A stretch of DNA of 64,000 bases from an uncultured Gemmatimonadales bacterium (lineage in GTDB: Bacteria > Gemmatimonadota > Gemmatimonadetes > Palauibacterales > Palauibacteraceae), in contig CAWANJ010000009.1 in the NCBI GenBank assembly GCA_963783385.1, positions 768,001 through 832,000 of the forward strand, read 5' to 3'. This document shows positions 47,198-63,282 of the stretch, in pieces. A program made the translations under genes and the position numbers. The notes beneath the pieces are model-generated. The model was not told the origin of the DNA and ran no database searches. It worked only from the letters and a program-made list of their open reading frames with translations. Positions within the stretch are counted from its first letter, which is position 1; the number at the start of each line of letters is the position of its first letter.

Positions 47198-47386
47198 GCG
47201 CGACGTCCACGTCGCCGGAAAATCCCTGAGGAACCTCCTTCCCCCGTCCCGAGAGCGCACGCCGCCGTGCCGGCGGCCCTCCTCCCCGGCGGCCGCTTGA
47301 ACTCCGGACGTGCCTTCCGCAGACTGCCGGGCCAGGGTGCCCCGCGGCCCGCTCGGGGACACCGCGACCCGTGCAGACGGACCCCC

Positions 47387-48859
47387 ATGTCGGACGCCGA
47401 AGCGCTGATCGACCGTATCCGCCGGCTCGAGCGCGAAGCCCGGCCGCTCGAGCCCGGCGCCGCGGACCGGCGTGCCATCCGGGACGCGGTCGTGCAGCAC
47501 GCCGAGGCGTTCCTCGAGCGGCTGCCCGAGGCTCCGGCCTTCGAGGTGCGCGCGGACGCGGCGCGGGCGCTGGCGCGCCGCGTCCCGTCCGAGGGCCCCG
47601 CACCGCTCGACGAGCTCCTGGCGCTGTTCCGGTCGGCGGTGGAGGACACGGGCCTCAAGCCGTCTTCGCCCGGCCACCTCGCCTACATTCCGGGTGGCGG
47701 CCTGTACGCGTCCTCCCTGGGGGACTACCTGGCGGCGGTGACCGACGAGTACGCGGGCATCCGGTTCGCGGGCCCGGGGGCGGTCGAGATGGAGAACGTG
47801 CTCCTGCGCTGGATGGCCGGCCTGGTGGGCTACCCGGAGGACGCCGCCGGCAACCTGACCTCGGGGGGCAGCATCGCCAACCTGGTGGCCGTGGTGGCGG
47901 CGCGGGAGGCCCACGGGCTCCGGGCCGCCGATGTCCCCGGCGCGGTCGTGTATCTCACGGACCAGGCCCATCACTCCCTGGACAAGGCGCTGCGGATCGC
48001 CGGCCTGGGCGAGGCGCCGCGCCGTCGCATCGCCACGGACGAGCGGCAGCGCATGGACCCGGACGCGCTCCAGCACTCGATCGACCGGGATCGCGCCGCC
48101 GGTCTGAGGCCGTGGCTCGTGCTCGCCTCCGCCGGCACGACGGACGTGGGGGCGATCGATCCGCTGGAGGCGATCGGCCGGGTGGCCCGCTCCCGGGGGC
48201 TGTGGTATCACGTGGACGCGGCCTACGGCGGGTTTTTCGCGTTGTGCCCCGAGGTGCGGGGGCGGCTGCAGGGCATCGAGGCATCGGACTCGGTCGTGAT
48301 GGATCCCCACAAGGGGCTGTTCCTCCCCTACGGCCTCGGCGCCGTCCTGGTGAAGGACCGGGCCGCCCTGCACCGCGCGCACCGCTACAGCGCCGACTAC
48401 ATGCAGGATGCCGTGGATCCCGGAGCCGAGGTGCCCGACTCCCCCGCCGAGCTCTCGCCCGAGCTCACCAAGCACTTCCGGGGCCCCCGGCTGTGGCTGC
48501 CCCTCCTCCTGTACGGCGTGGGTCCGTTCCGGGCGTGCCTCGAGGAGAAGCTCCTGCTGGCGCGCTACTTCCACGAGCGCGTGCGAGACCTGGGGTTCGA
48601 GGTCGGCCCCGAGCCTCAGCTGAGCGTGGCCACCTTCCGCTGGGTCCCGGCCTCCGGGGACCCGGACGCCTTCAACCGGGCGCTGGTGCGCGCCATCCAC
48701 GAAGACGGCCGGGTGTTTCTTTCGTCTACACGTGTAGACGGTCGCTTCGTTCTGCGCCTGGCGGCGCTGACCTTCCGCACGCACCTGGACACGATCGACC
48801 TGTCGCTGCGGATCCTCGCGGAGAAGGTGGCGGAGCTCGAGGGGGAAGCCGGAGCCTGA
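47387..48859 (+). CDS. Group II PLP-dependent (aromatic amino acid-like) decarboxylase
   Basis: LAYIPGGG, TSGGSIAN, QAHHS, AGTTDVGAIDPL, HVDAAYGG, DPHK (PLP lysine). Confidence 0.92.
   Translation: MSDAEALIDRIRRLEREARPLEPGAADRRAIRDAVVQHAEAFLERLPEAPAFEVRADAARALARRVPSEGPAPLDELLALFRSAVEDTGLKPSSPGHLAYIPGGGLYASSLGDYLAAVTDEYAGIRFAGPGAVEMENVLLRWMAGLVGYPEDAAGNLTSGGSIANLVAVVAAREAHGLRAADVPGAVVYLTDQAHHSLDKALRIAGLGEAPRRRIATDERQRMDPDALQHSIDRDRAAGLRPWLVLASAGTTDVGAIDPLEAIGRVARSRGLWYHVDAAYGGFFALCPEVRGRLQGIEASDSVVMDPHKGLFLPYGLGAVLVKDRAALHRAHRYSADYMQDAVDPGAEVPDSPAELSPELTKHFRGPRLWLPLLLYGVGPFRACLEEKLLLARYFHERVRDLGFEVGPEPQLSVATFRWVPASGDPDAFNRALVRAIHEDGRVFLSSTRVDGRFVLRLAALTFRTHLDTIDLSLRILAEKVAELEGEAGA
48723..48740. 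repeat. Perfect 18-bp palindrome CGTCTACACGTGTAGACG inside the decarboxylase CDS
   Basis: Self-complementary; lies in a run of A/T-ending codons atypical for this DNA. Confidence 0.7.
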
Positions 48860-48883
48860 GCTCCGGCTTCGAGCCTCCGGCGA

Positions 48884-49780
48884 TCAGCGCCCCTCGAAGC
48901 GGGCGTCCCGCTTCTCGAAGAACGCCGCCAGCCCCTCGGAGAAGTTGGGCTCGTCCGCGATGCGCGCGAGCTCCTCGAGCTCGCGGTCCAGGTGGTAATC
49001 CAGCCGGTCCACGCCGTCGGCCTGGTGGATGAGCGCCTTGGCCACCGCGTAGGCGCGGGTGGGCCCGGCGGCGAGGCGTTCCGCCACCCCATCCACGCGC
49101 CCCTCGCACTCCGCGTCGGGGAACACATCCGTGAGGAGCCCCGCCTCGAGCGCCTGTCGGGCGCCGAGTCGGGGGTTCAGGAGGACCAGCTCGAGCGCCT
49201 TCCGGAGTCCGACCAGCCGCGGAAGGAAGAAGGTCGAGCTCTCGGCGCCCGTCAGGCCGGTCTTGGGATACGCCCACTCGAAGGTGGACCGCTCGGACGC
49301 GAACACCAGGTCGCACGACATCGCGAGCCCGAAGCCTCCGGCCGCGGCCACGCCGTCCACGGCGGCCACGAACGGCTTGGGAGCCCGCTTGATCTCCGAG
49401 ATGGTGCTGTGCAGGTACTCGAGGATCTCCTTGAAGCTCTCGCCGTAGCCGGACGCGGGGCCGTGTCCGTCGGGCTGCAGGTAGCCGAAGTCCCGCTCCT
49501 CCCCGCGCTGCCGCACGTACTTGAGGTCGGCGCCGCTGCAGAACACGCCGTTCGTGCCGCGGAGGACCACGCAGCGGACCTCCTCGTCCCGGGCCATCTG
49601 CAGCCCGGCCTTCCGGAGGTCGCGGGCGGTCTCCACGTCCAGCGAGTTGAAGCGCTCCGGCCGGTGGATCGTGATGACGCCCACCGCGCCCCGGCGTTCC
49701 ACCCGGATCGGCCCCTGGGGCTGCGCCTCGCCCGCCGGCCGCTCCTTCGCGGGCGCCGAACCGACCTCCCCCGGGCTCAC
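48884..49780 (-). CDS. Crotonase-fold (enoyl-CoA hydratase-like) protein; candidate HypX C-domain equivalent (formyl-CoA decarbonylase)
   Basis: FCSGADL, AAAGGFGLAMSCD, AYPKTGLTGAESSTFFLPRLVG; last gene of the hyp operon, GTGA-coupled to the formyltransferase. Confidence 0.85.
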   Translation of the reverse strand: MSPGEVGSAPAKERPAGEAQPQGPIRVERRGAVGVITIHRPERFNSLDVETARDLRKAGLQMARDEEVRCVVLRGTNGVFCSGADLKYVRQRGEERDFGYLQPDGHGPASGYGESFKEILEYLHSTISEIKRAPKPFVAAVDGVAAAGGFGLAMSCDLVFASERSTFEWAYPKTGLTGAESSTFFLPRLVGLRKALELVLLNPRLGARQALEAGLLTDVFPDAECEGRVDGVAERLAAGPTRAYAVAKALIHQADGVDRLDYHLDRELEELARIADEPNFSEGLAAFFEKRDARFEGR

Positions 49781-50688
49781 CGGACCGCGACCCCGGTTGC
49801 GCTCCCCAGGATGGACGCGATCCACGCCTCCGTGACCACCGGAGCCCGGCCCGCGGCGTCGGTGTCGGCGAGCGACGCCGGGCCGGGGCGACCGTCCACG
49901 ACGAAACCATCGTCGGCGAGCTCGACCGCGCCGCGCGCGAACAGCTCGGCGGCGCGCACCATCATGGGACCCCAGGCCGTCTCCATCATCCAGCCCCTGT
50001 GCGCGTACGCATACGCCCGAACCACGTCCTCGGCGCCCCGGTGCGCCACTTCGGCCACCAGCGAGTGCACCGGATAGGGGCCGCTCACCAGGAGCGGGGG
50101 CCCGGCATCCAGCTCCTCCGTCGCCAGGTGGAGCGTGGTGCGGGTCTCGGGCTCCCCGGCCAGGATGGCGTCCCTGGTGGCGTGGAGGCCGTGGTAGCGC
50201 GGTCGCCCCGCCGCGTCGCGTAGTCGGAGGTCGGCGTCGTGCACGTTGAGGATCCTCCCCGCGAACGCCTCGAGGAGCACCGGGCTCGCCACGAGGAGGT
50301 AGCCGCACAGGAGGACCAGGTCGGGCCGGAAGGGCTCCAGGATCGCCAGGGTCGCCCGGTCGTACGCCGGCCGCGCCGACCGGTCACCCACCGACGTGCC
50401 GCGCCCCGCGCAGAACTCCGCCACGTCGTGGACGCTCACCGGCACTCCGGCGCCCACCGCGATCTCGAGTCCGCGGCAGCCCCGGTGGCTGGCCACCACC
50501 GTCACCACCTCGAAGCCGGTGTCAAGCTCCATCGACGCGCGCAGGAGGTCCCCCAGCCCCGGGGTCCGATGCGAAGTGAGGACCGCCACCCGCAGGCGCC
50601 GCGGACGAGGCTCGCCCCACGTTCGCCCGCCACCCGACTGCACCCGACGCCGCACCGCCGCCCGCAGCGTCCCCATCGCGAAGCTCAT
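49777..50688 (-). CDS. N10-formyl-THF-dependent formyltransferase; candidate HypX N-domain equivalent
   Basis: PDLVLLCGYL, ILNVH, Y.GL.A.RDAI..GE, TLH..TEELDAGP; SD AGGAGG, start 17 bp after the hypE stop. Confidence 0.85.
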   Translation of the reverse strand: MSFAMGTLRAAVRRRVQSGGGRTWGEPRPRRLRVAVLTSHRTPGLGDLLRASMELDTGFEVVTVVASHRGCRGLEIAVGAGVPVSVHDVAEFCAGRGTSVGDRSARPAYDRATLAILEPFRPDLVLLCGYLLVASPVLLEAFAGRILNVHDADLRLRDAAGRPRYHGLHATRDAILAGEPETRTTLHLATEELDAGPPLLVSGPYPVHSLVAEVAHRGAEDVVRAYAYAHRGWMMETAWGPMMVRAAELFARGAVELADDGFVVDGRPGPASLADTDAAGRAPVVTEAWIASILGSATGVAVR

Positions 50689-50705
50689 CTATGCCTCCTG
50701 TCCGA

Positions 50706-51797
50706 TCAGCAGATCCGTGGAAGTGGCTCACCGACCGGCTCCGTGAGGAGCCGGCGTCCGAGGCCCGTGTCGAGGACCACCCGCCCGGGGTGGTCGGCGG
50801 CACAGATACCGATCACGGCGGCGTCGCGGCCCAGGGGATGGGCGCGCAGGGCCGCCAGCACGTCCTCCACCCGCTCGGGCCGGACGCCCATGAGCGCCTT
50901 GCCCTCGTTGGCGATGTGGAAGGGGTCCAGGCCCAGCATCTCCGCGGCCGCTCGCACCGAGTGGCGGACGGGCACCACCGGCTCATCGATCACGATGCTG
51001 ACGCGACTCTTGTCCGCCATCTCGTGGAGCGCGCTCGCCACCCCGCCCCGGGTCGGGTCCTTGAGGGCCACCACCTCGGCCCCGCCGGCCTGGAGCGCCG
51101 CGCGCACCAGCCCGTTGATCGGAGCGACGTCGGAGAGGAGCTCCTCGTCGAACTCCAGCTCGTGGCGCCGCGCCATGAGCGAGATCCCGTGGTCCCCCAC
51201 GGTGCCGGTGACCACGATGCGGTCCCCGGGCTGCAGGCCCGCATCGATCACCACCCTCGACGTGATCGCGACCCCCGCGGTGTTGAGGACGAGACCATCC
51301 ACCTCGCCCCGGGGCATGACCTTGGTGTCGCCGGTGATCACGGTCGTGCCCGCCTCGCGGCAGGTCTCGAGCATGGAGAGCTGGATCGCCTCGAGCTCCG
51401 TTCGGCGGAATCCCTCCTCGACGACCACGGCGCAGGTGAGGCCCAGGGGCTCCGTGGCCCCCATCATGGCCAGGTCGTTGACCGTGCCGGCCACGGCCAG
51501 GCGACCGATGTCGCCCCCGGGGAAGCGGATGGGGTGGACCACGTGGGAGTCGGTGGTCACCACCAGCCAGCGCCCGTCCGGCAGGGGAAGCGCCGCCCCG
51601 TCGTCCATCTGGGCGAGCCCGATGCCCTCCATGGGCGTCTCGGCGTAGCCCGCCGCCAGCGTCTCCTCGATGAGGAGGCGCATGGGCACGCCGCCCGCGC
51701 CGTGCTTGAGGGTCACGAGCTCGTCGGGCCGGGCCGACCTCCGGGACGTCGGCCGGGGGATCGTGGTGCCGCTCGCCTGCTGCTCCATGGGAGTCAC
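50706..51797 (-). CDS. hypE: Carbamoyl dehydratase HypE
   Basis: HGAGG, DSHVVHPIRFPGGDIGRLAVAGTVNDL, GDTKV, KDPTRGG, ANEGK, C-terminal PRIC. Confidence 0.96.
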   Translation of the reverse strand: MTPMEQQASGTTIPRPTSRRSARPDELVTLKHGAGGVPMRLLIEETLAAGYAETPMEGIGLAQMDDGAALPLPDGRWLVVTTDSHVVHPIRFPGGDIGRLAVAGTVNDLAMMGATEPLGLTCAVVVEEGFRRTELEAIQLSMLETCREAGTTVITGDTKVMPRGEVDGLVLNTAGVAITSRVVIDAGLQPGDRIVVTGTVGDHGISLMARRHELEFDEELLSDVAPINGLVRAALQAGGAEVVALKDPTRGGVASALHEMADKSRVSIVIDEPVVPVRHSVRAAAEMLGLDPFHIANEGKALMGVRPERVEDVLAALRAHPLGRDAAVIGICAADHPGRVVLDTGLGRRLLTEPVGEPLPRIC

Positions 51798-51801
51798 CGT
51801 C

Positions 51802-52965
51802 TCACAGGTCCGGGTGTCCGCCGTACTGGTGCCAGATCCGGCACGTACCCTCCGTGCTCACCATGCAGGCGCCCACCGGCGCGTCGGGAGCGCATTCTTT
51901 ACCGAACAGGGGGCAGTCCACGGGCGAGGCGATGCCGGCCATGATGTCTCCGCAGATGCACACCTGGGTGAGCTGCGAAGGAGCATAGTCCCACAACCGC
52001 CGCACGTCGATGTCGAAGCGCCGCCTCGCGTCCACGTGCGCGAACTCGTCGCGAAGGCGGAGGTTGCCGTTGGGAACGTGTGCGATGCCGCGCCACCGTC
52101 CGCCCGTGGTCCGGAACACGCGCCACAGCTGGTCCTGGGCGTTTCGGTTCCCCTCGCGGGTCACGCAGCGGGGGAAGGTGTTCACGACCCGGGGCGTGCC
52201 GTCCCGGATGAGCTCGGTGAGCGTCAGGAGCCCCGCCAAAATGTCCAGCGGCTCGAAGCCCGCCACCACCACGGGAAGGCCGTGGCGCTCCACGAAGCGC
52301 TCGAAGATCGCCCAGCCGGTGATCGTGGCGGCGTGGCCGGCGGCCAGGAAGCCCTCGACGCGGGCGCCCGGCATCTCGGCCACGATCTCCATGACCGGCG
52401 GGATGTACTTGTGCGCCGACAGCACCGAGAAGTTCGGGGGCGGGTCCCCCAGGACGACCGCGGCCGTGGCCACGGCCGTCGTCTCGAAGCCGCTGGCGAA
52501 GAACACGACCTCCTCGTCGGTGTCCCGCGCCAGCTCCGCAGCCTGCGTGGCGCTGTACACGACGTCCACATGGGCCCCCCTCGCCTGCGCATCGGAGAGC
52601 GACCCGGCCGAGCCCGGTACCTTGAGCATGTCCCCGTAGGAGGCGATCCTCACGCCGTCCTGCGCGAGGGCGACCGCCTCGTCCACTTCGGGCACGTCGG
52701 TCACGCACACGGGGCAGCCCGGCCCCATGATCACGTCCAGGCTCCGCGGGATCAGTGTCCTCAGGCCGAACTTCGCGATCGACTGCTCGTGGCTCCCGCA
52801 CACGTGCATCACCGAGACGGGCGCCCGGCCCACCTGGCCACACACACGGTCGATGGCGGCGGCCAGCGCCCGGGCCCGACCCGGATCCCGGAAACGAAGC
52901 TCGGCCGCCTCGCCCGCCAGCGCCGTGCCGGCGGCCGGGCTCCCGCCGTCCGACGACGCACTCAC
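51802..52965 (-). CDS. hypD: Hydrogenase maturation scaffold HypD
   Basis: MHVCGSH, GPGCPVC, GFETT, C-x14-C-x6-C region and GACMVSTEGTC. Confidence 0.96.
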   Translation of the reverse strand: MSASSDGGSPAAGTALAGEAAELRFRDPGRARALAAAIDRVCGQVGRAPVSVMHVCGSHEQSIAKFGLRTLIPRSLDVIMGPGCPVCVTDVPEVDEAVALAQDGVRIASYGDMLKVPGSAGSLSDAQARGAHVDVVYSATQAAELARDTDEEVVFFASGFETTAVATAAVVLGDPPPNFSVLSAHKYIPPVMEIVAEMPGARVEGFLAAGHAATITGWAIFERFVERHGLPVVVAGFEPLDILAGLLTLTELIRDGTPRVVNTFPRCVTREGNRNAQDQLWRVFRTTGGRWRGIAHVPNGNLRLRDEFAHVDARRRFDIDVRRLWDYAPSQLTQVCICGDIMAGIASPVDCPLFGKECAPDAPVGACMVSTEGTCRIWHQYGGHPDL

Positions 52966-53282
52966 AATCCCTCCTCCGCGGTCATCGCGCCCCCGAGTCC
53001 CACGCCGCGCCCCCGGGCCGCCTCGATCTCGCCCCGCACGTCGCCGGCCATCATGTCGTCGGCGGCCTCTTCGAGCAGCATCTCGTACAGGGCGAGCGTT
53101 TCGCCGATCTCCTCGGCCGGGATCTTCCGGATCGCGAAGCCCACGTGGTTGAGGATGTAGTCGCCGGGCCCGACCGGCTCGTCGACCACGTCGAGCCGCG
53201 TCTCGCGGTGCACGCCGAAGAAATCCACGATGGCCACCTGGCCATCGACCTCCAGCACCTTTCCGGGCACTCCCAGACACAT
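52962..53282 (-). CDS. hypC: Hydrogenase chaperone HypC
   Basis: MCLGVPG, GDYILNHVGFAI; acidic C-terminal extension. Confidence 0.95.
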   Translation of the reverse strand: MCLGVPGKVLEVDGQVAIVDFFGVHRETRLDVVDEPVGPGDYILNHVGFAIRKIPAEEIGETLALYEMLLEEAADDMMAGDVRGEIEAARGRGVGLGGAMTAEEGL

Positions 53283-53283
53283 G

Positions 53284-55248
53284 TCAGGCCTCCTCGGTTC
53301 GCGCCAGGCGGGCGGCGCCGACCACGGCCTGCCCGTAGCTGATGGCGCCGTCGTTGGGTGGCAACCGTCGCGGTCGCAGCACCCGCACACCCCGGCTCCT
53401 GAGACGCCTGGCCAGCGACACCAGCAGCCGGGCGTTCTGGAACATGTCTCCCGCCAGCGCGACCATCTCGATCCGGTGCTCCGCGCACACCGCGCCCACG
53501 AGGTCGGCCGTGGCCTCGGCGACGCTCTCGTGGAACGCGGCGGCCAGCCGACCGACGTCTTCGCCCCGGCCGCGTCCCCGAGCCAGCGCCTCCAGCAGGG
53601 GTCGGGGATCCAGGGTCCACGGCTCGGCCGTCCGCCTGGAGCGGGGGAACGGAAGGGGCGCCGCCCCGCGATCTCCGGCCAGCGTCTCGAGGAGCAGCGA
53701 GGCCTCGCCCTCGTACCGCTCGAAACGGAGATCGGCCAGGACCGCCGCGGCCGCGCCGAACAGCCCGTCCATGGAGGAGCGGGCGGGGACGCCGAGGTCC
53801 GTCACGTCGAGCGGCCCGGCGTCGGTGACGGGCTCGCAGCGCACGTGCGCGACGCCCTCGAACGAGGTCGGATCCGCCACCAGCACCCTGGCGCCGCGCG
53901 CTCCGTTCTCGTCGGACCCGTGGCCCTCGTAGACCACGCCCACCACCCGTCCCAGGACACCGTGCTCGCCGGCCACGGCGGCCACGTGCGCGTGGTCGTG
54001 GTGCACGGACAGCTCCGTCCGCACCCCCAAACCGCGGGCCAGGCGCCGCGCCAGGCGTCCGGCGTCCGCGTCGTGCACGACGACCTCCGGGGTCACCCCG
54101 TGGAGGCGCTCGAAATGCTCGAGCGTGCTGTGGAAGTGGTCCAACGTCCCCAGCTCCTCCAGGTCTCCGAGTCGCGGGCTGGGGTACGCCAGACCCTGCC
54201 TGGCGAGCGCGAAGGTCGTCTCGAGCCGCGAGCCGAGCGCCAGCAGGGGAACCGGGGTCGCGACGGGGAGCGGCACGGCTTCGGGGACCCAGCCCCGGGC
54301 ACGGCGGAGGAGCACGGCCGAGCCCTCGACCACCCGGGCGACGCTGTCGTCGCACCGGGCCGCGATGTCACGGTCGTGCAGGAGGAAGGCATCGGCCGCG
54401 TGCCCCAGACGCTCGAAGCTCTCGCGAATGCCGGCGACCAGCGGCTCGCCATCCACCCTCCCGCTCGTCAGGACGAGCGGCCGGTCCGTCCGCTGCACCA
54501 GGAGCCGGCGGAGCGCCGTGTCGGCGACCAGGATCCCGACCGTGTCGAGTCCGGGAGCCAGCGACGGCGCGAGCCCCGCATCCCGCCTTCGGCGCAGGAG
54601 GAGCATGGGCCGCCTCGGCGCTTCGAGGTGGCGCGCCTCCTCCTCCGACACGTGCGCCAGCCGGCGCGCCTCCTCCAGGTCGCGGACCATGACGCCGAGC
54701 GGCTTGGCCTCCCGACCGGTGCGCCGCCGGACCCGGGCCACGGCTTCCTCCTGCGTCGCGTCGACGACGAGGTGCACCCCGCCCGAGCCACGGACCGCGA
54801 CGATGTCGCCGTCCAGGAGACGCCGGGCCGCTTCCCCGATCGCCTCGTCCCCCGAAGCCATCTCCACGCCCGAAGGGTCGGCCAGCCAGGCGCGTGGCCC
54901 GCAGGAGGGGCAGGCGTTCGTCTGGGATCCTTCCCGCCGGTCCCCCGGCGTAAGGACCTCGCGCTCGCACTCGGGACACATGTCGAACGCCCGCATGCTC
55001 GTCCGGGCGCGGGCGTAGGGGACGCTCTCGATGATCGAGTAGCGCGGTCCGCACGATGCGCAGGTCGTGAAGGGGTAGCCCGGACGGCGGCTGTCCGGGT
55101 CCTCGATCTCCGCGTTGCAGGTCGGGCACGTCGCCACGTCCGCGGGCACCACCGGCTCCCGGGCGTGGCGGGTCCGGCCGCGCGGAGCGGTACGCGCCCC
55201 TCCTCCGCGGGTGCGGCCGCCCGCCGGGTCCGCCCGGGAGGTGGGCAT
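53284..55248 (-). CDS. hypF: Divergent carbamoyltransferase HypF (no acylphosphatase domain, 654 aa)
   Basis: Two zinc fingers (CPTC..CASC; CPEC..CPSCGP), DDSV, RRARG, HHDHAH, PPNDGAISYGQ. Confidence 0.88.
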   Translation of the reverse strand: MPTSRADPAGGRTRGGGARTAPRGRTRHAREPVVPADVATCPTCNAEIEDPDSRRPGYPFTTCASCGPRYSIIESVPYARARTSMRAFDMCPECEREVLTPGDRREGSQTNACPSCGPRAWLADPSGVEMASGDEAIGEAARRLLDGDIVAVRGSGGVHLVVDATQEEAVARVRRRTGREAKPLGVMVRDLEEARRLAHVSEEEARHLEAPRRPMLLLRRRRDAGLAPSLAPGLDTVGILVADTALRRLLVQRTDRPLVLTSGRVDGEPLVAGIRESFERLGHAADAFLLHDRDIAARCDDSVARVVEGSAVLLRRARGWVPEAVPLPVATPVPLLALGSRLETTFALARQGLAYPSPRLGDLEELGTLDHFHSTLEHFERLHGVTPEVVVHDADAGRLARRLARGLGVRTELSVHHDHAHVAAVAGEHGVLGRVVGVVYEGHGSDENGARGARVLVADPTSFEGVAHVRCEPVTDAGPLDVTDLGVPARSSMDGLFGAAAAVLADLRFERYEGEASLLLETLAGDRGAAPLPFPRSRRTAEPWTLDPRPLLEALARGRGRGEDVGRLAAAFHESVAEATADLVGAVCAEHRIEMVALAGDMFQNARLLVSLARRLRSRGVRVLRPRRLPPNDGAISYGQAVVGAARLARTEEA

Positions 55249-55919
55249 CAGGTGGCCACCGTCGAGGGGATCCGGGACTCCAGGAAGGAAGTCCACTCCT
55301 CCAGCCCCTCGCCCGTGCGGGCCGAGGTCAGGAAGAAGCGGAGGTCCGGATTCACCGCGCGCGCGAACGCGACGGCGCGGTCCACGTCGAAGTCCAGGTG
55401 AGGCAGCAGGTCGATCTTGTTGAGGACCGCGTAACGGGCCATGCGGAACATCTTCGGATACTTCACGGGCTTGTCCTCGCCCTCGGTCACCGAGAACACC
55501 ACCACCTTGGCGGACTCGCCCAGGTCCCAGCTGGCCGGACACACAAGGTTGCCGACGTTCTCCACGAACAGCAGGTCGGTGTCGTCCAGGTCGATGGCCT
55601 CGAGTGCCGAGGTCACCTGCCGGGCGTCCAGGTGGCACGCGCCGTTGGTCACCACCGCCTGGACCAGCCGGTCCGTGTGGGCCGCCAGGCGATCCGCGTC
55701 GTTCTGTGTCTGTACGTCCCCGGTCACCACCGCGATGCGCAGTCGGTCCCCGAGCCGCTCCAGGGTACGCTCCAGGAGGAGCGTCTTACCCGAGCCCGGA
55801 GAGGAGACGAGGTTGAAGGACGGCACGCCCGCCGCCGCCAGCCGCGCGCGCACGGCGGCCGCCAGCTCATCGTTTCGGGTCATGACCCTCTCACGTACGT
55901 CGATCGTCCGGACCGTCAT
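55248..55919 (-). CDS. hypB: Nickel-insertion GTPase HypB
   Basis: SSPGSGKT, GACHLDA, ENVGNLVCP, EGEDKP.KYP, NKIDL. Confidence 0.96.
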   Translation of the reverse strand: MTVRTIDVRERVMTRNDELAAAVRARLAAAGVPSFNLVSSPGSGKTLLLERTLERLGDRLRIAVVTGDVQTQNDADRLAAHTDRLVQAVVTNGACHLDARQVTSALEAIDLDDTDLLFVENVGNLVCPASWDLGESAKVVVFSVTEGEDKPVKYPKMFRMARYAVLNKIDLLPHLDFDVDRAVAFARAVNPDLRFFLTSARTGEGLEEWTSFLESRIPSTVAT

Positions 55920-56160
55920 CCTCCACCTCCAGGTACTTGACCCTGAACACGTCCCCCGGAGCTGGCTCGATGACCGGCCGAGCCGCCCCGAAGGGCGGGC
56001 TCCCGAGGAGCGCCTCCAGGCAGAATTCCAGGTTCGACCGCTCGACGCCGGCGTCATCGCCGACCTCGAGGGCGACCACCCTAACGTCCCCCAGGCGTGC
56101 CGTTCCCACGTGCTCCTCGGTGATCCGGCAGATCTCGAGGGCCAGGCTCATCTCGTGCAC
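55891..56160 (-). CDS. hypA: Miniature HypA lacking the zinc-binding domain (89 aa)
   Basis: (M)HEMSLA, LEVG..AGVE..NLEFC, C-terminal FRVKYLEVE; no CxxC motifs. Confidence 0.85.
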   Translation of the reverse strand: MHEMSLALEICRITEEHVGTARLGDVRVVALEVGDDAGVERSNLEFCLEALLGSPPFGAARPVIEPAPGDVFRVKYLEVEDDGPDDRRT

Positions 56161-56167
56161 GGGATGG

Positions 56168-56737
56168 TCAGCCCGCGCGCACGCGCTCCGCACGCTCGGG
56201 CGTCCGGTCGTCGGACGTGATCCGCACCGCCCGGTGCCCCCAGGAGCGCAGGGTGGCGACCGCCGCCGCCACGAGGGTGGGAAGGGTGTCCCGCACGATC
56301 GGACTGAGCTCGGGCGCCATCTCGATGCGCTCGGGCTGCAGGCCGATCGCCACGGTGTCGGCCGGGAGGCGACCCCGGAACTCGGCCAGCGCCAGCACCT
56401 CCCGCAGGTCGATCTGGTGGGGGGAGACCTTGGTGAACAGGTACCGCGGCAGCTCCTCGCCCCGGAGGACCACGAGGCTCCCGGCCGGGCGCCCGGCGTG
56501 GATCGCATCCAGGAGGAGCAATCGCTCCGCGTCCTCGATCAGGCCGAGGAGGTTCATGCCCCAGGTGCCGCCGTCCACGAGCTCGACCGGCGGGGAGAAG
56601 CTCCAGCCGGAGCGCAGCGCCTCGAGCGCCTCGAGCCCGACGCCATCGTCCGCCATGAGGGGAGTGCCGAGCCCCAGGACGAGGGTGCCGGAGGGCGCCC
56701 GGGGCGACCGCGCGCCCCGGGCCGCGGACTCACTCAT
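56168..56737 (-). CDS. Hydrogenase maturation endopeptidase (HyaD/HybD family)
   Basis: LGLGTPLMADDGVG, DGGT.G, LLDA, SPHQ. Confidence 0.92.
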   Translation of the reverse strand: MSESAARGARSPRAPSGTLVLGLGTPLMADDGVGLEALEALRSGWSFSPPVELVDGGTWGMNLLGLIEDAERLLLLDAIHAGRPAGSLVVLRGEELPRYLFTKVSPHQIDLREVLALAEFRGRLPADTVAIGLQPERIEMAPELSPIVRDTLPTLVAAAVATLRSWGHRAVRITSDDRTPERAERVRAG

Positions 56738-57503
56738 CCTCGAACTCCAGGTCCTCGCGGACGAACTTCCCGCCGCTCACGATGGAGGACAGGGAGCCGT
56801 CCAGCTCCGTCACGTCGGCCCGGATGGCCAGGTAGACGTGGATCGGGAAGAAGATGATGAAGAACCAGGTCATGACGTGGTGCCAGAAGCGCACCCCCTG
56901 CACGCCACCCAGCAGGTCGCGCACCCAGCCGAACGCCTCGTAGAAGAAGCCCTCCGGATTGGCGAGCCCGTACAGCGCGAAGCCCGTCACCACCATGAAG
57001 GCTCCCACCAGGTAGACGAGCGTGTAGCTCAGCTGCTGGAGGGGGTTGTGCCCCAGATAGTGCGGGGCGCGCTCGGGCCGGATCATGAGGTACTTCTTGA
57101 CCATGCGCCACAGGTTGCCCACATCCCGGCCACGCAGCGGGAAGAGCGCCGGCAGGCGCTCGAACTTGTTCCCCGCGAACAGCCAGTAGAGCCGGACGAT
57201 GCCGGTGGCCACGAACACGCCCGCCGCCGCGAAGTGCAGGAAGCGCATCCATCCCATGGCGTAGGACGTGGCGTTGCCCGTCCCCCCGGTCATGAAGTAG
57301 GGCCGGCCGATGTAGAAGCCGGTGGCCGCCAGGACGACGATGGCACCGAAGGCCAGCCAGTGCATGGCCCGAATGGGCCAGTGCCACAGGTAGACCCAGC
57401 GGTAGCCGTGGACGGCGGGCCGGGGTCGCTCGCCGAGCGCCGCCCGGTCCCGCGTCTCCCTGGAGACGGCTTCCGCGCCGCCTCCCCCCGGCCCCGCGTT
57501 CAT
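56730..57503 (-). CDS. [NiFe]-hydrogenase b-type cytochrome subunit (HyaC/HupC-type)
   Basis: W.WPIRAMHW, TGFYIG.P, RFLHF, GHNPLQQL.Y, WHH..W.....HVY. Confidence 0.93.
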   Translation of the reverse strand: MNAGPGGGGAEAVSRETRDRAALGERPRPAVHGYRWVYLWHWPIRAMHWLAFGAIVVLAATGFYIGRPYFMTGGTGNATSYAMGWMRFLHFAAAGVFVATGIVRLYWLFAGNKFERLPALFPLRGRDVGNLWRMVKKYLMIRPERAPHYLGHNPLQQLSYTLVYLVGAFMVVTGFALYGLANPEGFFYEAFGWVRDLLGGVQGVRFWHHVMTWFFIIFFPIHVYLAIRADVTELDGSLSSIVSGGKFVREDLEFEDE

Positions 57504-59224
57504 CCCTGCACCTTCACGGTGGTGACCAGGTCTCCCTCGGCATCCAGGACGTGCACCCCGCAGGCCATGCAGGGGTCGAAGGAGTGGATGGTCCGCAGGA
57601 TCTCGATGGGCTGGTCCGGTTTGACCAGCGGGTGGTTGTCCACCAGCGAGGCCTCGTAAGGCCCCTTCTGGCCCTTCGCGTCCCGCGGCGAGCAGTTCCA
57701 GGTGCTCGGCACCACGCACTGGTAGCGGGAGATCTGGCCGTTGTGGATCTCGACCCAGTGGCCCAGGGCGCCGCGCGCCGCGTCCAGGTACCCGTAGCCG
57801 CGCGCCGTGGCGGGCCACGTGGACGGATCCCACTTCTGGTCGTTGAAGGTGGCCACGTCGCCGTTCTTGATGCGGGACACGAGGTCCCCGTACCAGTCCT
57901 CCATCTTGCGGGCTATGAGGACAGTCTCGATCGCTCGAGCCGCCGTACGACCCAGGGTCGAGAACAGCGCCGAGGGGCCCACCTGGAGCTTGCCCAGGGC
58001 TTCTCCGACCAGGCCCTTCACGCCCTCGTGGCCGGCCGCGTACGCCACCAGCATCCGCGCCAGCGGGCCCACCTCCATGGGCTTCCCGTCGTAGCGCGGG
58101 GCCTTCATCCAGGTGTACTTCTCCTGGTCCTGGATGAATGTCCAGGGGGGCTTGGGACCGGTGTAGTTGGGCACGGTCTGCCCTTCGTACGGATGGAGAC
58201 CCTCCTCCGGCGCGCCCTGGTACTCGTACCAGGAGTGCATGACCTCCTCGCGCACCTTGGCCTCGTCGTAGGGGACCACCTTCGTCAGGTCGTTGTCGAG
58301 GATGATCCCGCGCGGGAAGTAGAGGTGCTCGATGTCCCGGAAGTCGCTCCCCGCGGCCGGGAACATTCCCACCGCCAGGTAGTTGGGGACGCCGCCGCCG
58401 ATCGACGCCCAGTCCTTGTAGAAGCCGGCGATGGCCAGGAGGTCCGGCCAGTACACCTGCTCCACGAACACGCGGGCCTTGTCGATCAGCGCCTTGATGT
58501 CGCTCAGTCGCTCGGCGTTGATCGTCCCGGTGTCGTTCACGTTGATGGCCGACGCCATCCCGCCCACCAGGAAGTTGGGGTGCGGGTTCTTGCCGCCGAA
58601 GATCGTGTGCAGCCTGATCACGTCGCGCTGCCAGTCCAGCGCCTCCAGGTAGTGCGACACGGCGATCAGGTTCACCTCGGGCGGCAGCTTGTAGGCCGGG
58701 TGGCCCCAGTAGCCATTGGTGAAGATCCCGAGCTGCCCGGAGCTCACGAACTTCTGGAGCTTCTCCTGGACGGCCTTGAAGTAGGCCCCCGAGTTGTTGG
58801 GCCACGGGGACAGGCTGCGGGCGATCTGCCCGGCCCTGTCGGGATCGGCCTTCAGCGCGCTCACCACGTCGACCCAGTCGAGCGCGTGCAGGTGGTAGAA
58901 GTGGATGACGTGGTCCTGCACGGTCTGCATGCCGTGCACGAGGTTGCGGATGATCGTGGCGTTGGGCGGGATCGTGATGTCGAGCGCGTCCTCGACGGCC
59001 CGGCACGACGCGATGGCGTGCACCACGGTGCACACGCCGCAGATCCGCTGGGTGAAGGCCCAGGCATCGCGCGGATCGCGCCCGTTCATGATGATCTCGA
59101 TCCCGCGGAACTGCGTGGAGGATGCCCACGCGTCCGCGATCTTGCCGTTCTCGGCCTGCACCTCGATGCGCAGGTGGCCCTCGATCCGCGTGATCGGGTC
59201 GACGACGACCTTAGTCCTGGCCAT
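57500..59224 (-). CDS. Group 1 [NiFe]-hydrogenase large subunit
   Basis: DPITRIEGH, L1 QRICGVCTVVH, GGKNPHPN, L2 SFDPCMACGVH plus cleavable C-terminal tail. Confidence 0.97.
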   Translation of the reverse strand: MARTKVVVDPITRIEGHLRIEVQAENGKIADAWASSTQFRGIEIIMNGRDPRDAWAFTQRICGVCTVVHAIASCRAVEDALDITIPPNATIIRNLVHGMQTVQDHVIHFYHLHALDWVDVVSALKADPDRAGQIARSLSPWPNNSGAYFKAVQEKLQKFVSSGQLGIFTNGYWGHPAYKLPPEVNLIAVSHYLEALDWQRDVIRLHTIFGGKNPHPNFLVGGMASAINVNDTGTINAERLSDIKALIDKARVFVEQVYWPDLLAIAGFYKDWASIGGGVPNYLAVGMFPAAGSDFRDIEHLYFPRGIILDNDLTKVVPYDEAKVREEVMHSWYEYQGAPEEGLHPYEGQTVPNYTGPKPPWTFIQDQEKYTWMKAPRYDGKPMEVGPLARMLVAYAAGHEGVKGLVGEALGKLQVGPSALFSTLGRTAARAIETVLIARKMEDWYGDLVSRIKNGDVATFNDQKWDPSTWPATARGYGYLDAARGALGHWVEIHNGQISRYQCVVPSTWNCSPRDAKGQKGPYEASLVDNHPLVKPDQPIEILRTIHSFDPCMACGVHVLDAEGDLVTTVKVQG

Positions 59225-60383
59225 GACGATCCTCCTCGTGGCTGGCAGAACCGCCGTCCGGCTCGCCGCCGCCCGAACCCGACGCGCCCTCCGTCCGATG
59301 CCGCATCCGGTTCACACCCGTAACGACCGCGTGCGCCGCCACGCCGGCCGTGGCCCCGACCGCGAGAGCGGCGCCGATCGTGTCGGCCGTGCTCTCGATG
59401 CCGAAGCCCGAGACCTTGGGCATCCGCTGGTAGAAGGGGGTCATGGTGTCCCAGAACATCCGCTCGGTGCAGCCCAGGCAGGGGTGCCCCGCCCCGATCG
59501 GCCAGCTCGTCTCGCCGTTCCACTGGAAGATCGGGCACGGTGAGAAGGTCGCCGGTCCCTTGCAGCCTACCTCGTACAGGCACCATGCCTTGCGCGCGGC
59601 CTCGTCGTCGAACGTCTTGACGAACTGGCCGGCGTCGAAGTTGGCGCGACGCGAGCACTGGTCGTGGATCCTGGCGCCGTAGGCGAACAGGGGCCGGTGG
59701 TCGTAGTCGACGTCCGGCAGCCGCCCGAAGGTCAGGTAGTGGACGACGGTGGCGGTGATCGTGTCGGCGATCGGTGGGCAGCCGGCGATGTTCACGACCG
59801 GCTTGTCCTTGACGATCTGGTCGACGCCCACCGCCCGGGTCGGGTTCGGGGCCGCGGCCTGTACGCTCCCGAAGTGCGCGCACGCCCCGACGGCCAGTAC
59901 GGCGGCGGCGCCGGCGGCGCCCTCCTCCAGGATGTCGCGCGCCGTGCGGCCGCCGATCATGGTGTAAATGCCGTCCTCGGCCAGGGGCACGGAGCCCGTC
60001 ACGATGAGCACGTACTCGCCGTGGTGGTCCTTCATCGCCTGCTGCAGCGCGCTCTCGGCCGCCGAGCCCGCCGCCGCCTGGAGGTTCTCCTGGTAGTCCA
60101 GGGAGATGAGGTCGAGGACGAGATCGCCGATCGTCGGATGGGACGTGCGGAGCGTGGACTCGGTGCACCCCGTGCACTCCTGCAGGGAGAGCCAGATCAC
60201 GCTCGGCCGCTGGAGCTGCTCCAGGGCCCTGGCGATCTTCGGCGTGAGCAGGCTGCTCAGGCCGAGCATGGCGCCCATCTCGCCGCAGAACTGGAGGAAG
60301 TCTCGGCGGCTGACGCCACGGCTGTGGAGATGCTCGCCGAGGGTCGCGCCGGGCTCCCAGGGATCGGTCAACGGAAAGTACAT
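59211..60383 (-). CDS. Group 1 [NiFe]-hydrogenase small subunit, Tat-exported with C-terminal TM anchor
   Basis: SRRDFLQFC, ECTGCTES, GAC, GCPP, HDQC..CLY..GCKGP, GHPCLGC. Confidence 0.97.
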   Translation of the reverse strand: MYFPLTDPWEPGATLGEHLHSRGVSRRDFLQFCGEMGAMLGLSSLLTPKIARALEQLQRPSVIWLSLQECTGCTESTLRTSHPTIGDLVLDLISLDYQENLQAAAGSAAESALQQAMKDHHGEYVLIVTGSVPLAEDGIYTMIGGRTARDILEEGAAGAAAVLAVGACAHFGSVQAAAPNPTRAVGVDQIVKDKPVVNIAGCPPIADTITATVVHYLTFGRLPDVDYDHRPLFAYGARIHDQCSRRANFDAGQFVKTFDDEAARKAWCLYEVGCKGPATFSPCPIFQWNGETSWPIGAGHPCLGCTERMFWDTMTPFYQRMPKVSGFGIESTADTIGAALAVGATAGVAAHAVVTGVNRMRHRTEGASGSGGGEPDGGSASHEEDRHGQD

Positions 60384-60755
60384 CGACCACCTCCCGGATC
60401 GTGAGCAGCCGCCGCGCCCGCTCGATCCGTCACGGATCGTGGACTCGGTCGGCTCGGAAGTACGGGCCGGTCGCGCACGCCGGCCCGCTTGTCGGGCTTG
60501 CTCATCATGCTACTCGGCCGCCAGGGAGCCGTCTGTCGGGAGGAGCGTGGCCCTTCCTGTAAGTGAGGCGTGCGCAGCCGTGTGGGGAGATCCCCCACCG
60601 CGGGCCGGACCGCCGGGCGGCGGGATGTCACCACACGCCAGAGCGTGCAACTCCCGACAGACGGCCGGTCTGGCCCTGCGTATTGGTTCAGGTGCCGCGA
60701 GCCGCCCCCGGCTCGCGGCGAGCCTTCCGTGCCGTGCCCCAGCCGAGGACGGACC

Positions 60756-61136
60756 GTGAGCGCACTCGAAGTGTCCGGCGATGCCACGTCCGTAAGGGAG
60801 ACTCCGCCCGCGGGAGCCCTGCAGCGCCTGCTGGAGGTCGAGCAGGAGGCGGAGGAGGCCCTCGTCCGGGCTCAGACCCAGGCGCGGGAGCTGGTGGCAG
60901 CGGCACGCGAACGAGCGCTCGCCTCGGAGGAGGAGGCGCGCCACGACGTGGCTCGCGCCGGCCAGCGGATCGAGCGGGAGATCCACGCCTGGCGTGACGA
61001 GCGACTGGCGGCCCTGCAGGCCCAATCGGAGGGCGCGGCGCGCGCCTACGAAGAGGCCGCCTCCGCGCGTATCGGAGAGCTCGCGCGCGTCGTGGTCGAC
61101 GAGATCCTCGCCTTCGACGAGGCCGGCCGGCCATGA
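60756..61136 (+). CDS. V/A-type ATPase peripheral stalk subunit G/H
   Basis: Coiled-coil, Glu/Ala/Arg-rich; first gene before subunit I; ATGA overlap. Confidence 0.7.
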   Translation: MSALEVSGDATSVRETPPAGALQRLLEVEQEAEEALVRAQTQARELVAAARERALASEEEARHDVARAGQRIEREIHAWRDERLAALQAQSEGAARAYEEAASARIGELARVVVDEILAFDEAGRP

Positions 61137-63046
61137 TCGTCTCCATGACGCGGGTGCGGATCCTGGGACCGCGCGAGCGTCTCGAGGCCGTACTCGGGGA
61201 GCTGCAGGACATGGAGGTCCTGCACGTGGCCCCGCCGGTGACCCTGACCCCTCCCGGGGGCGCCCCTTCCGCGGAAGTGCCGGAGGCGGAGCGGAGCGTG
61301 GCCGCCACCCGGAAGCGCATCGAGGCGATCGGCTGGCTCCTGGAGCGGCTTCCCACCACGGACGGCCGCGGCCGAGCCCGCGGCGGCCTGCCCGACCGGG
61401 AGGAGGTGCTCGACGACCTCCTCTCCCGCCTCCACCGCGTGGTCGCGGCGCTCGGCCAGCAGCAGGAGGGACGGAGCCGCGAGCGCGCCCGGATGGCGCG
61501 CATGCGGGAGCTGCTCGAGACGTTCCGCGGTCTGGACACGCTGCGCGGCCGCTCCGGGGCGACCCACCCCTACTTCCTGATCGTCGAGACCCCGGACGGG
61601 AGCGCCGTGCAGGAGCTCCGGGAGGGGCTGGCCCGGCTCCTGGACGGCGGCTTCGAGCTGCTCGAGGGACCGCCGAGCGACGGCGAGACGCCGGCCGTGC
61701 TCCTGGTGCCCGGTGATCGCACCGAGGAGGTGGAGCGACTCCTGGCGGGCGCCGGGATCCAGGAGCTGCCGCTCACCGCCGGCGGAGCGGATGCGACGAG
61801 CTCCCCGGACGAACGGCTCGAAGCCCTCGACGCGCGCCTCGTCACGCTCAGGCGTCGCCTCCACCGGCTGGGACGCCGATACCGCGCCCCCCTGGAAGAC
61901 TGCCTGCAGGCCGAGCACGACCGCCTCCTCGCCCTGGAAACCCGAGCCGGCGCCGCCACCAGCCGGCACGCGTTCGTGCTGCAGGGCTTCGTGCCCGAGG
62001 ACGCCGTGCGCAGGCTCGAGAGTCGTCTCCACGAGCGCGTCGGGCCCACCGTCGTGGTGGAGCGCCAGGGCCGGGAGGAATGGCAGGGGGAGCTGGCGCC
62101 CGTCGTCCTCCACAATCCACGGCTCTTCCGGCCCTTCGAGGCCATCACGCGCACCCTGCCCCTGCCCCGCTACGGCAGCATCGACCCGACGCCCTTCGTG
62201 GCCGTGTTCTTCCCGATGTTCTTCGGCGTCATCGTGGGCGACGTGGCCTACGGGGCCGCCATCGCCGCTCTGGCCCTGCTCCTGCGCCGCAGCTCGGCGC
62301 CGGACAGCCTGCGGCGTAGCATCGCCGAGATCGCCGGGGCGTGCGCCGCGTTCACGATCGTGTTCGGCTTCCTGTATGGCGAGTTCGCGGGCGACCTGGG
62401 TCGACGCCTGTTCGGCCTCCACCCCCTCCTCCTGGACCGGGAGGAGGCCCTGGTGCCCTTCCTGGCGCTCGCCATCGCGCTGGGTTTCGTGCAGGTCGTG
62501 CTCGGCCTGTTCCTGGGAGCCATCTCCTCCTTCCGGGGTCACCGCCGGGAGTCGCTCGGCCGCGGCCTCTCGGCCCTCATGCTCATCCTGGTGGCCCTGG
62601 CGCTGCTGGCCGCCGTGGAGGTCCTCCCGCACGGCTTCTTCACCCCGGCGATCGTGGCGCTCCTGGTGGCCTTTCCGGTCCTCGTGATCCTGGAGGGGTT
62701 CCTGGCTCCCATCGAGCTCCTGTCGACGCTGGGCAACATCCTTTCCTACGCTCGTATCATGGCCGTCGGGACGGCATCGGTGATGATGGCCGTGGTGGCC
62801 AACCGCCTGGCGGGCGCGGTGGGAGGTGTGCTCGTGGGCGTCCTGTTCGGCCTCATCTTCCACGTGGTGAACTTCGGGCTGGCGCTGTTCGGCCCCACCA
62901 TCCACGGCCTGCGGCTCCACTACGTCGAGTTCTTCGGCAAGTTCTTCAGCCCGGGCGGAACCCAGTACCGGCCCTTCGGGCACTGGCGACCGGAGCCCGG
63001 CCCTCCATCCAACCCCAGCGCGGCGAACGCCGCGAGGAGTGATTGA
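61133..63046 (+). CDS. ntpI: V/A-type ATP synthase subunit I (a)
   Basis: LQGFVP, PRYGSIDPTP, FFGVIVGD.AYG, GNILSYARI, HGLRLHYVEFFGKF. Confidence 0.95.
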   Translation: MIVSMTRVRILGPRERLEAVLGELQDMEVLHVAPPVTLTPPGGAPSAEVPEAERSVAATRKRIEAIGWLLERLPTTDGRGRARGGLPDREEVLDDLLSRLHRVVAALGQQQEGRSRERARMARMRELLETFRGLDTLRGRSGATHPYFLIVETPDGSAVQELREGLARLLDGGFELLEGPPSDGETPAVLLVPGDRTEEVERLLAGAGIQELPLTAGGADATSSPDERLEALDARLVTLRRRLHRLGRRYRAPLEDCLQAEHDRLLALETRAGAATSRHAFVLQGFVPEDAVRRLESRLHERVGPTVVVERQGREEWQGELAPVVLHNPRLFRPFEAITRTLPLPRYGSIDPTPFVAVFFPMFFGVIVGDVAYGAAIAALALLLRRSSAPDSLRRSIAEIAGACAAFTIVFGFLYGEFAGDLGRRLFGLHPLLLDREEALVPFLALAIALGFVQVVLGLFLGAISSFRGHRRESLGRGLSALMLILVALALLAAVEVLPHGFFTPAIVALLVAFPVLVILEGFLAPIELLSTLGNILSYARIMAVGTASVMMAVVANRLAGAVGGVLVGVLFGLIFHVVNFGLALFGPTIHGLRLHYVEFFGKFFSPGGTQYRPFGHWRPEPGPPSNPSAANAARSD

Positions 63047-63050
63047 GTCG

Positions 63051-63272: not shown

Positions 63273-63282
63273 GGCCGCGGAC

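Follow-up and report, generated by a model that had tools for sequence, protein, structure and literature searches.

How the carbon monoxide (CO) ligand of [NiFe]-hydrogenases arises is, in the accessible part of a 2025 review, one main open question of the maturation of these enzymes, and HypX is given there as the only known CO-forming maturase, with no two-gene form mentioned in that part (PMC12134894). The same question is raised by the end of a hydrogenase/hyp operon in a 64,000-nucleotide stretch of DNA (the whole of which is referred to here as the window) from an uncultured Gemmatimonadales bacterium (GenBank assembly GCA_963783385.1, contig CAWANJ010000009.1, positions 768,001 to 832,000). 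The operon comprises 12 tightly packed genes on the minus strand, the last two of which encode a formyltransferase (FT) and a crotonase-fold protein (ECH). In the original prediction, which was made from the letters of the window, this pair was read as a candidate split HypX. The part of that claim that stands is a conserved, hyp-linked, non-fused two-gene unit, while the fission of a canonical hypX does not hold, FT being a PurN-type enzyme. FT and ECH are probably a non-orthologous analogue of HypX made of two proteins, with a presumed chemistry leading from N10-formyl-tetrahydrofolate (N10-formyl-THF) via formyl-coenzyme A (formyl-CoA) to CO. The pair and the gene before it are laid out as follows:

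50706-51797, minus strand, hypE, directly upstream of FT (Pfam AIRS 5e-22, AIRS_C 1.5e-30)
50694-50699, minus strand, Shine-Dalgarno-like AGGAGG, read from the sequence, 5 nt before the FT start and inside the hypE-FT gap
49777-50688, minus strand, FT, a PurN-like formyltransferase of 303 amino acids (Pfam Formyl_trans_N 6.4e-21)
49777-49780, minus strand, GTGA overlap of the FT stop codon TGA and the ECH start codon GTG, read from the sequence
48884-49780, minus strand, ECH, a crotonase-fold protein of 298 amino acids (Pfam ECH_1 3.3e-46)

The stop codon of hypE is the TGA at 50706-50708 and the start codon of FT is the ATG at 50686-50688, which leaves a gap of 17 nt. This spacing, the Shine-Dalgarno-like element, the lengths of both proteins, and the GTGA coupling agree with the original description. 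By tblastn, the hypE of the window matches annotated hypE genes at 43-54% identity. An identical 4-nt FT/ECH overlap is found in L001, a locus from a different assembly. The exact start of ECH is not proven, since its first 24 residues are poorly conserved.

Two abutting frames of this kind could result from a frameshift or an assembly error, in which case the true gene would be one fused open reading frame (ORF). The ECH frame is indeed open upstream to 50308, as had been pointed out with the original prediction, and a few long 'fused' gene calls (P0106, P0107, P0108, and P0111) exist in the protein database. However, the upstream part of the ECH frame is out-of-frame text rich in Arg, Gly, and Pro. 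The four long proteins, in turn, mix family sequence with out-of-frame text rich in Arg, Ala, and Pro and are therefore frameshifted gene calls, not true FT-ECH fusions. No genuine FT-ECH fusion emerged when longer FT relatives were sought, the only matches being weak ones to PurN-PurH fusions. The region 48800-50800 was also compared with Logan contigs (contigs, not raw reads) of four further runs from four studies of salt-marsh and sediment metagenomes, in which no inserted or missing letters occur; two contigs span the whole region with 2 and 6 substitutions, and others bridge the junction. Across related loci, FT ends in its own stop codon in 75 of 75 pairs, and the FT and ECH frames differ in 74 of them. 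The probability of an artefact is thus practically nil.

The pair is also conserved as a unit. One genome per species was scanned for FT relatives, with the window's own proteins searched by tblastn, and 80 loci were obtained from Gemmatimonadota, Acidobacteriota (Vicinamibacteria and Thermoanaerobaculia), and one metagenome-assembled genome (MAG) each of Nitrospiria, Actinomycetes, and Halodesulfurarchaeum. ECH lies directly downstream of FT in 75 of the 80 loci (75 of the 77 that can be assessed), and the contig ends within 87 nt after FT in three others. Directly upstream of FT is hypE in 71/80 loci and hypD in 5/80, where the order is hypD-FT-ECH-hypE; FT stands at the start of a contig in two. 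Identity across loci is 61-84% for ECH and 35-59% for FT. A large subunit matching that of the window at E<=1e-30 is encoded in 45 of 48 carrier genomes, at 45-97% identity in 44 of them and at 36-46% in G035, and it is often found on the contig of the module. The FT-ECH module is very probably a genuine hydrogenase-maturation accessory. Two loci carry FT in other company: at L022:6935-9104, FT comes after hypF and is followed by a 421-residue ORF with no Pfam match, and at L061:3373-5174, in the Halodesulfurarchaeum MAG, FT is found beside a DUF169 gene, outside a hyp context.

Such linkage bears on the simplest reading of the pair, namely a housekeeping PurN and a crotonase of fatty-acid or phenylacetate metabolism that have come to lie beside the hyp operon by chance. 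Existing annotation favors this, as the original prediction had foreseen for automated calls of PurN and enoyl-CoA hydratase: the sources name FT relatives 'phosphoribosylglycinamide formyltransferase' by automated annotation, and the best NCBIfam models are PurN (TIGR00639) for FT and PaaG-like models for ECH. Both scores nevertheless fall far under their cut-offs, at 82.8 bits against 150.1 for FT and 169.6 against 300 for ECH. Furthermore, the genome has another PurN-like gene, the substrate loop of PurN is replaced in FT, and ECH is without both hydratase glutamates. The synteny counts contradict the housekeeping reading outright, for 76 of the 78 loci that can be assessed have the pair beside hyp genes, in five of them between hypD and hypE, and in samples of two phyla (Gemmatimonadota and Acidobacteriota) hypD lies beside ECH in 20 of the 20 genomes with an ECH orthologue. 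The likelihood of a chance neighborhood is accordingly minute.

FT has Formyl_trans_N as its sole Pfam match, and Formyl_trans_C is not matched, in line with the missing formyltransferase C-terminal domain of the original description. The catalytic motifs noted there are likewise intact, with N148 (50245-50247) and H150 (50239-50241) in NVH and D194 (50107-50109) in LDAGP. Across 45 sequences of the FT family, H150 and D194 are invariant and N148 is present in at least 90%. In the NCBIfam ranking, PurN, whose curated cut-off FT misses, is followed by PurU (28.9-34.9 bits) and fmt (20.5 bits). Among proteins of solved structure, those most similar to FT in sequence are PurN enzymes (1.1e-16), and HypX is not among the Protein Data Bank (PDB) matches listed for FT. 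Foldseek, run with an AlphaFold model of FT (predicted local distance difference test (pLDDT) 88.8), ranks PurN first (1cde, 3auf, and 4zyv; TM-score on target about 0.82), then PurU, and then ArnA. In a search of 5.8 billion proteins, about 80 proteins form the FT subfamily at E<=1.8e-31; a gap follows, and then true PurN at 5e-15 and weaker.

FT and PurN have the same fold and the same N10-formyl-THF-type binding core, and the catalytic residues N-x-H...D occur in both. The differences lie in the setting of FT beside hyp genes, in a score below the PurN cut-off, and in the acceptor site, which was compared in an alignment of five family members with four PurN sequences. The S-G-x-G-[ST]-N loop of PurN, which we take to be its glycinamide ribonucleotide phosphate loop, becomes S-x-R-[AT]-P-G in the FT family (S-H-R-T-P-G in the window). 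Three family-specific insertions are also present: 11 residues near residue 95, 8 residues after the catalytic His, and 10 residues in the last helix. This C-terminal helix is conserved (AYAYAHREWMM..WGPL) and is followed by short strands. The window's genome contains two further Formyl_trans_N genes, encoding a PurN-like protein of 244 amino acids and an Fmt of 368 amino acids. FT represents a distinct, hyp-linked PurN-type subfamily and not the housekeeping PurN of the cell. Its remodelled acceptor site, as it appears in the alignment, argues for a new formyl acceptor but does not give the identity of that acceptor.

HypX (HoxX) resembles FT-ECH in its order, with a formyltransferase followed by a crotonase-fold unit, and in being encoded in the hyp cluster next to hypE, but it is one polypeptide, whereas FT-ECH comprises two genes. 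The reference used here is the 597-residue HypX of Cupriavidus necator from pHG1, whose gene comes directly after hypE, as does hypX in Rhizobium and Sulfurimonas. It is thus conceivable that a canonical hypX fissioned into two genes, both halves being orthologous to the HypX domains; the equal domain order and operon position speak for this, as do the crotonase Tyr/Glu motif common to both and the placement of the two crotonase groups in a tree, both of which are described below. For the FT half, however, fission is contradicted by a PurN-type sequence and fold. The N-domain of HypX is of the Fmt/FDH type, scoring 49.9 bits with fmt and matching Formyl_trans_C, whereas FT is PurN-type, lacks Formyl_trans_C, and has its own conserved C-terminal helix. 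FT reaches only E 0.088 with C. necator HypX in BLASTP, hhalign of the FT family profile with HypX yields a probability of 21%, and the best match of the HypX N-domain in the window's genome is the Fmt gene, not FT. By these sequence comparisons, the formyltransferase halves of the module and of HypX are not orthologous. Full-length orthology is likewise lacking. With C. necator HypX as the query, HypX of other phyla are matched along 81% or more of its length with E-values no higher than 2e-58, whereas the best match here, at about 2e-8, covers the crotonase half only. A fission of hypX is very unlikely. The convergent origin that the original prediction offered as an alternative is supported. 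The two formyltransferases do have catalytic residues in common. In the available part of one study, His74 and Asp109 are the residues that catalyze formyl transfer in Aquifex aeolicus HypX (PMC6802093), and a His and an Asp serve as the invariant pair H150 and D194 in FT; for Asp80 of HypX no counterpart in FT was assigned.

ECH is a member of the crotonase superfamily both by its ECH_1 match and by its fold. Its AlphaFold model (pLDDT 85.2) is nearest to ordinary crotonases, among them 4lk5 and 3p5m, for which the TM-score on target is as high as 0.95, and the PaaG structure 3hrx. Its top NCBIfam models are oxepin-CoA hydrolase, alternative type (NF046063), which gives the score quoted above, and PaaG (TIGR02280), at 157.6 bits against a cut-off of 345.15; every NCBIfam crotonase model scores ECH below its cut-off. 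An enoyl-CoA hydratase proper uses two catalytic glutamates, one in G-G-x-E and one in P-E. ECH has neither, for when it is aligned with a canonical paralogue encoded in the same genome (GGGCEL...GQPEINLG), Gly151 and Tyr171 stand at the two positions, which bears out the absence of both glutamates noticed originally. The Tyr and Glu that the original prediction singled out correspond to Tyr171 (codon 49268-49270) and Glu180 (codon 49241-49243). They belong to the motif Y-x3-G-L-x-G-[AS]-E, which reads AYPKTGLTGAE in the window. Every one of the 71 family members of at least 230 residues (70 from the loci and the window's own) has both Tyr171 and Glu180, and neither residue has an equivalent in any of the nine other crotonase paralogues of the window's genome.

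In both sequence and fold, ECH matches PaaG-like crotonases best (1,2-epoxyphenylacetyl-CoA isomerase and oxepin-CoA hydrolase, alternative type), which, like ECH, have a Tyr where the second hydratase glutamate sits. In contrast, where these relatives have the catalytic Asp of 'P-D', ECH has 'G-A-E', in which the carboxylate is moved on by one position, as it is in HypX, and ECH differs further in its strict hyp linkage, with no paa genes nearby. The specificity of the motif was assessed on the best 150 representatives from a profile search of 1.84 billion proteins. Tyr and Glu occur together in 26 of these, all of them family-like, and the only other bearer of the Glu is an unrelated protein of 1038 amino acids with Phe and Glu. 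In these alignments, the Glu of ECH, one position past the usual Asp, is shared only with HypX. Tandem ECH-ECH proteins, P0194 (552 amino acids) and P0241 (469 amino acids), are found among the closest relatives of the ECH family profile.

In the available part of the study cited above, mutation of Tyr439 or Glu449 in C. necator HypX results in a HypX-minus phenotype, and their counterparts in the A. aeolicus HypX structure, Tyr416 and Glu426, are close to the thiol of CoA (PMC6802093). BLASTP aligns ECH with residues 337-510 of C. necator HypX at 30% identity over 193 residues (E 2e-12), and hhalign aligns it with HypX at a probability of 97.5% in the same register. Both place Tyr171 on Tyr439 and Glu180 on Glu449, a correspondence at the level of sequence and not of three-dimensional structure. 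The HypX motif that the original prediction gave, and with which it aligned ECH, occurs in real HypX sequences: six of six HypX from four phyla contain Y-x3-G-(N)-L-x-G-S-E (for example, AYKPMGLTGSE in Nocardia). Since four of the six are without the extra Asn, their Tyr-to-Glu spacing is exactly that of the ECH family. The profile of the ECH family gives 38.6-62.2 bits on the six HypX; with C. necator HypX it scores 55.2, more than Pfam ECH_1 (47.9) or the top NCBIfam crotonase model (37.6). Overall, the two crotonase halves are as closely related as members of one superfamily would be expected to be, and a single motif common to both stands out. As originally stated, neither half of the module is a canonical HypX domain, FT being PurN-type and ECH being nearer PaaG-like enzymes.

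A crotonase tree of 49 rows was built from 11 of the 71 family members, 6 HypX C-domains, 19 of about 120 generic representatives, 4 divergent 'near' sequences, and 9 paralogues of the window's own genome. HypX C-domains, the ECH family, and the 'near' sequences are found on one side of a branch with 100/95 support, away from the generic and own-genome crotonases. HypX joins the tree at a trifurcation with a branch length of 2.5, and its sisterhood with the ECH family is therefore not decided. The tree is compatible with a common ancestry of the two groups, though it is not strong evidence for it. Among the 'near' sequences, P0201 and P0222 are partly frameshifted family members, and the divergent relative P0195 finds matches of only 24-30% identity in metagenome contigs.

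A two-protein route to the CO ligand can be proposed on these grounds. FT, through its conserved Asn-x-His...Asp site and its remodelled acceptor site, would move the formyl group from N10-formyl-THF to the thiol of CoA. ECH would then bind formyl-CoA, which Tyr171 and Glu180 would decarbonylate to CO and CoA. On HypCD, where the Fe(CN)2CO unit is built, this CO would end up as the carbonyl ligand. FT-ECH would thus be a functional HypX analogue of two polypeptides, with FT presumably recruited from the PurN branch and not from the Fmt/FDH branch used by HypX. We infer CoA as the acceptor, formyl-CoA as the intermediate, and CO as the product, as well as any FT-ECH complex. In HypX, CoA passes between the sites within one chain, whereas for FT-ECH no continuous intramolecular CoA tunnel can be assumed. 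An O2-compatible source of CO, as argued for HypX in the accessible part of the 2025 review (PMC12134894), would be useful in an organism with haem-copper oxidases, and the window's genome encodes one (COX1, 550 bits). It is tentatively suggested, at somewhat less than even chances, that a route from the one-carbon pool to the CO ligand was put together on at least two occasions, with a decarbonylase paired either with a separate PurN-type formyltransferase, as here, or with a fused Fmt-type one, as in HypX. The two-gene form could be an older, unfused state of the CO-ligand pathway.

Several observations weigh against a HypX-like function. ECH is globally nearer PaaG-like crotonases than HypX, to whose C-domain it is only about 30% identical; its phmmer match to 2ej5 in the PDB reaches 2.7e-40, and HypX is absent both from the 60 PDB matches listed for ECH and from the Foldseek matches listed. 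A HypX C-domain profile gives the ECH family 67-85 bits and generic single-domain crotonases 60-79, two higher scorers being tandem ECH-ECH proteins. The Tyr alone is not diagnostic, as 69 of the best 150 representatives combine it with Gly in the pattern A-Y-x3-G-L-x-P-D-G; since this pattern is typical of PaaG-like enzymes, the Tyr was inherited from the wider PaaG-like group. FT is found without ECH in 2 of the 80 loci (L022 and L061), and the 75 loci with the pair are not independent, because all may descend from one ancestral cluster. The module also accompanies a hydrogenase whose small subunit motif reads ECTGCTES, which we take to be the standard four-cysteine proximal-cluster pattern, unlike the six-cysteine O2-tolerant type, and any link to O2 is therefore indirect. 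Moreover, of the 98 Gemmatimonadota and 102 Acidobacteriota with hyp genes, 87 and 92, respectively, have neither HypX nor the module, so the module is not generally required. Finally, CoA as the acceptor and CO as the product are conclusions from sequence and not from biochemistry.

Some of these points would equally fit a maturation module with other chemistry, in which FT formylates a pantetheine arm, an amine, or a Hyp protein, or in which ECH uses another acyl-CoA, the likeness to HypX being partial. The acceptor site of FT is remodelled without CoA being identified as the acceptor, the overall closest relatives of ECH are PaaG-like isomerases and hydrolases, many of which have its Tyr, and the two loci with FT and no crotonase would also be accommodated. 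However, a formyl-THF-type transferase strictly coupled to a CoA-ester enzyme that carries the HypX-specific Glu, both in the slot of hypX, is what the HypX route predicts. In addition, no other maturation step is known to need a formyl donor, in keeping with the accessible part of the 2025 review (PMC12134894). Other chemistry is rather unlikely, and a HypX-like two-protein route to CO is the reading preferred here.

The distribution of the module was compared with that of HypX. As a control, the HypX query recovers the full-length protein, with E-values of 2e-58 to 5e-178, in Proteobacteria, Actinomycetota, Cyanobacteriota, and Campylobacterota. Full-length HypX was not found in the window's genome, which is 92% complete and gives best matches of 2.5e-9 (Fmt) and 2.3e-8 (ECH), nor in any of the 48 module carriers when all candidates were scored (best partial match 2.3e-14), nor in any of 251 Gemmatimonadota for which the best five candidates per genome were scored. 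The original prediction had proposed looking for homologues next to hypE in genomes without a fused hypX, and such is the arrangement found, with hypE upstream in the 71 loci counted above and no full-length HypX in the 48 carriers. Among the 251 Gemmatimonadota, HypD is present in 98, an ECH orthologue in 11, and HypX in none. This carrier count rests on the ECH scan; a scan with the FT profile, covering the best 10 of about 54 candidates per genome, gave at least 3 of 251. The 11 ECH carriers are exactly the 11 genomes whose HypD scores 404-421 bits. In a sample of 201 Acidobacteriota, HypD is present in 102, an ECH orthologue in 9, and full-length HypX in one (G308; 56% identity, E 1.9e-176), which has HypD and no ECH orthologue. 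All nine Acidobacteriota carriers have HypD, with hypD on the same contig and no more than 3 kb from ECH, and hyp genes stand beside the module in all 20 carriers of the two phylum samples. The module and HypX occur together in none of the genomes searched, but mutual exclusion rests on little, since HypX was seen only once.

By Pfam score, the HypD of Gemmatimonadota falls into two separated types, one of 473-523 bits in 87 genomes and one of 404-421 bits in 11, and the FT-ECH pair occurs only with the second. The types are less cleanly apart in Acidobacteriota, where ECH carriers score 405-451 bits and some non-carriers 430-446. Two plasmid matches of the HypX query stand out, H51 (NZ_CP050299.1, Mesorhizobium huakuii) and H64 (NZ_CP080523.1). 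A canonical hypX region carries two annotated features there, one named 'enoyl-CoA hydratase-related protein' and the other 'formyltransferase family protein', and in another record only the N-terminal 37% is matched. Such cases may represent either a true fission of canonical hypX or a copy of it in decay.

No prior description of a two-gene HypX-like form was found in the searchable literature, in which HypX papers treat the fused protein; most subscription papers and supplements lay outside the search. What is new here is probably a HypX-like function with another architecture and another formyltransferase lineage. If the twofold origin suggested above is true, enzymatic synthesis of the CO ligand would also extend to Gemmatimonadota, Acidobacteriota, and Nitrospirota. 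With a second system made of two proteins, formyl transfer and decarbonylation could be studied separately. The essential features of HypX (the Tyr/Glu crotonase site) could then be told from the replaceable ones (the type of formyltransferase and the fusion). The annotations 'PurN' and 'enoyl-CoA hydratase' would be corrected for these genes, a compact gene pair would become available for hydrogenase production in aerobic hosts, and the H2-oxidizing Gemmatimonadota and Acidobacteriota of salt-marsh, sediment, and soil metagenomes would gain an added marker.

The remainder of the operon, which runs in the order small subunit, large subunit, cytochrome b, protease, hypA, hypB, hypF, hypC, hypD, hypE, FT, ECH, and the gene that converges on its end are as follows:

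59211-60383, minus strand, hydrogenase small subunit (NCBIfam match)
57500-59224, minus strand, hydrogenase large subunit (NCBIfam match)
56730-57500, minus strand, b-type cytochrome (NCBIfam match)
56168-56737, minus strand, hydrogenase maturation protease (Pfam)
55891 to about 56160, minus strand, hypA (Pfam)
55248-56057, minus strand, hypB, start uncertain (Pfam)
53284-55638, minus strand, hypF (Pfam)
52962-53282, minus strand, hypC (Pfam HupF_HypC 2.6e-23)
51802 to about 52960, minus strand, hypD (Pfam HypD 9.3e-123)
47267-48859, plus strand, pyridoxal phosphate (PLP)-dependent decarboxylase gene (Pfam Pyridoxal_deC 1.7e-54)

The solved structure closest to the [NiFe] large subunit is 3myr, the Allochromatium vinosum enzyme (E 2.6e-225), followed by Salmonella Hyd-5 and Escherichia coli Hyd-1. 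The hydrogenase of the window is a group-1 membrane-bound [NiFe] enzyme that is exported by the twin-arginine translocation (Tat) pathway and linked to cytochrome b. The PLP-dependent decarboxylase gene is conserved in this position in no loci but those of the closest relatives, L001 and L003, and is therefore outside the module. Between the converging ends of ECH and this gene lies an inverted repeat, GCCGGAGC-TCAG-GCTCCGGC, at 48848-48867, which is without a T-run and was not called by the terminator scan; a scan of 48700-51000 for terminators and promoters called none. Upstream of the small subunit gene, at 60688-63999, minus-strand ORFs of 283, 733, and 251 amino acids have no Pfam match. 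Since the DNA is rich in G+C, these long frames could be either spurious or hitherto unrecognized genes. Elsewhere in the window's genome, at G000:C9:442129-443268, a 547-residue frame gives a second, partial NiFeSe_Hases match that is limited to the two termini of the profile and could belong to another hydrogenase group or to a NuoD-like protein.

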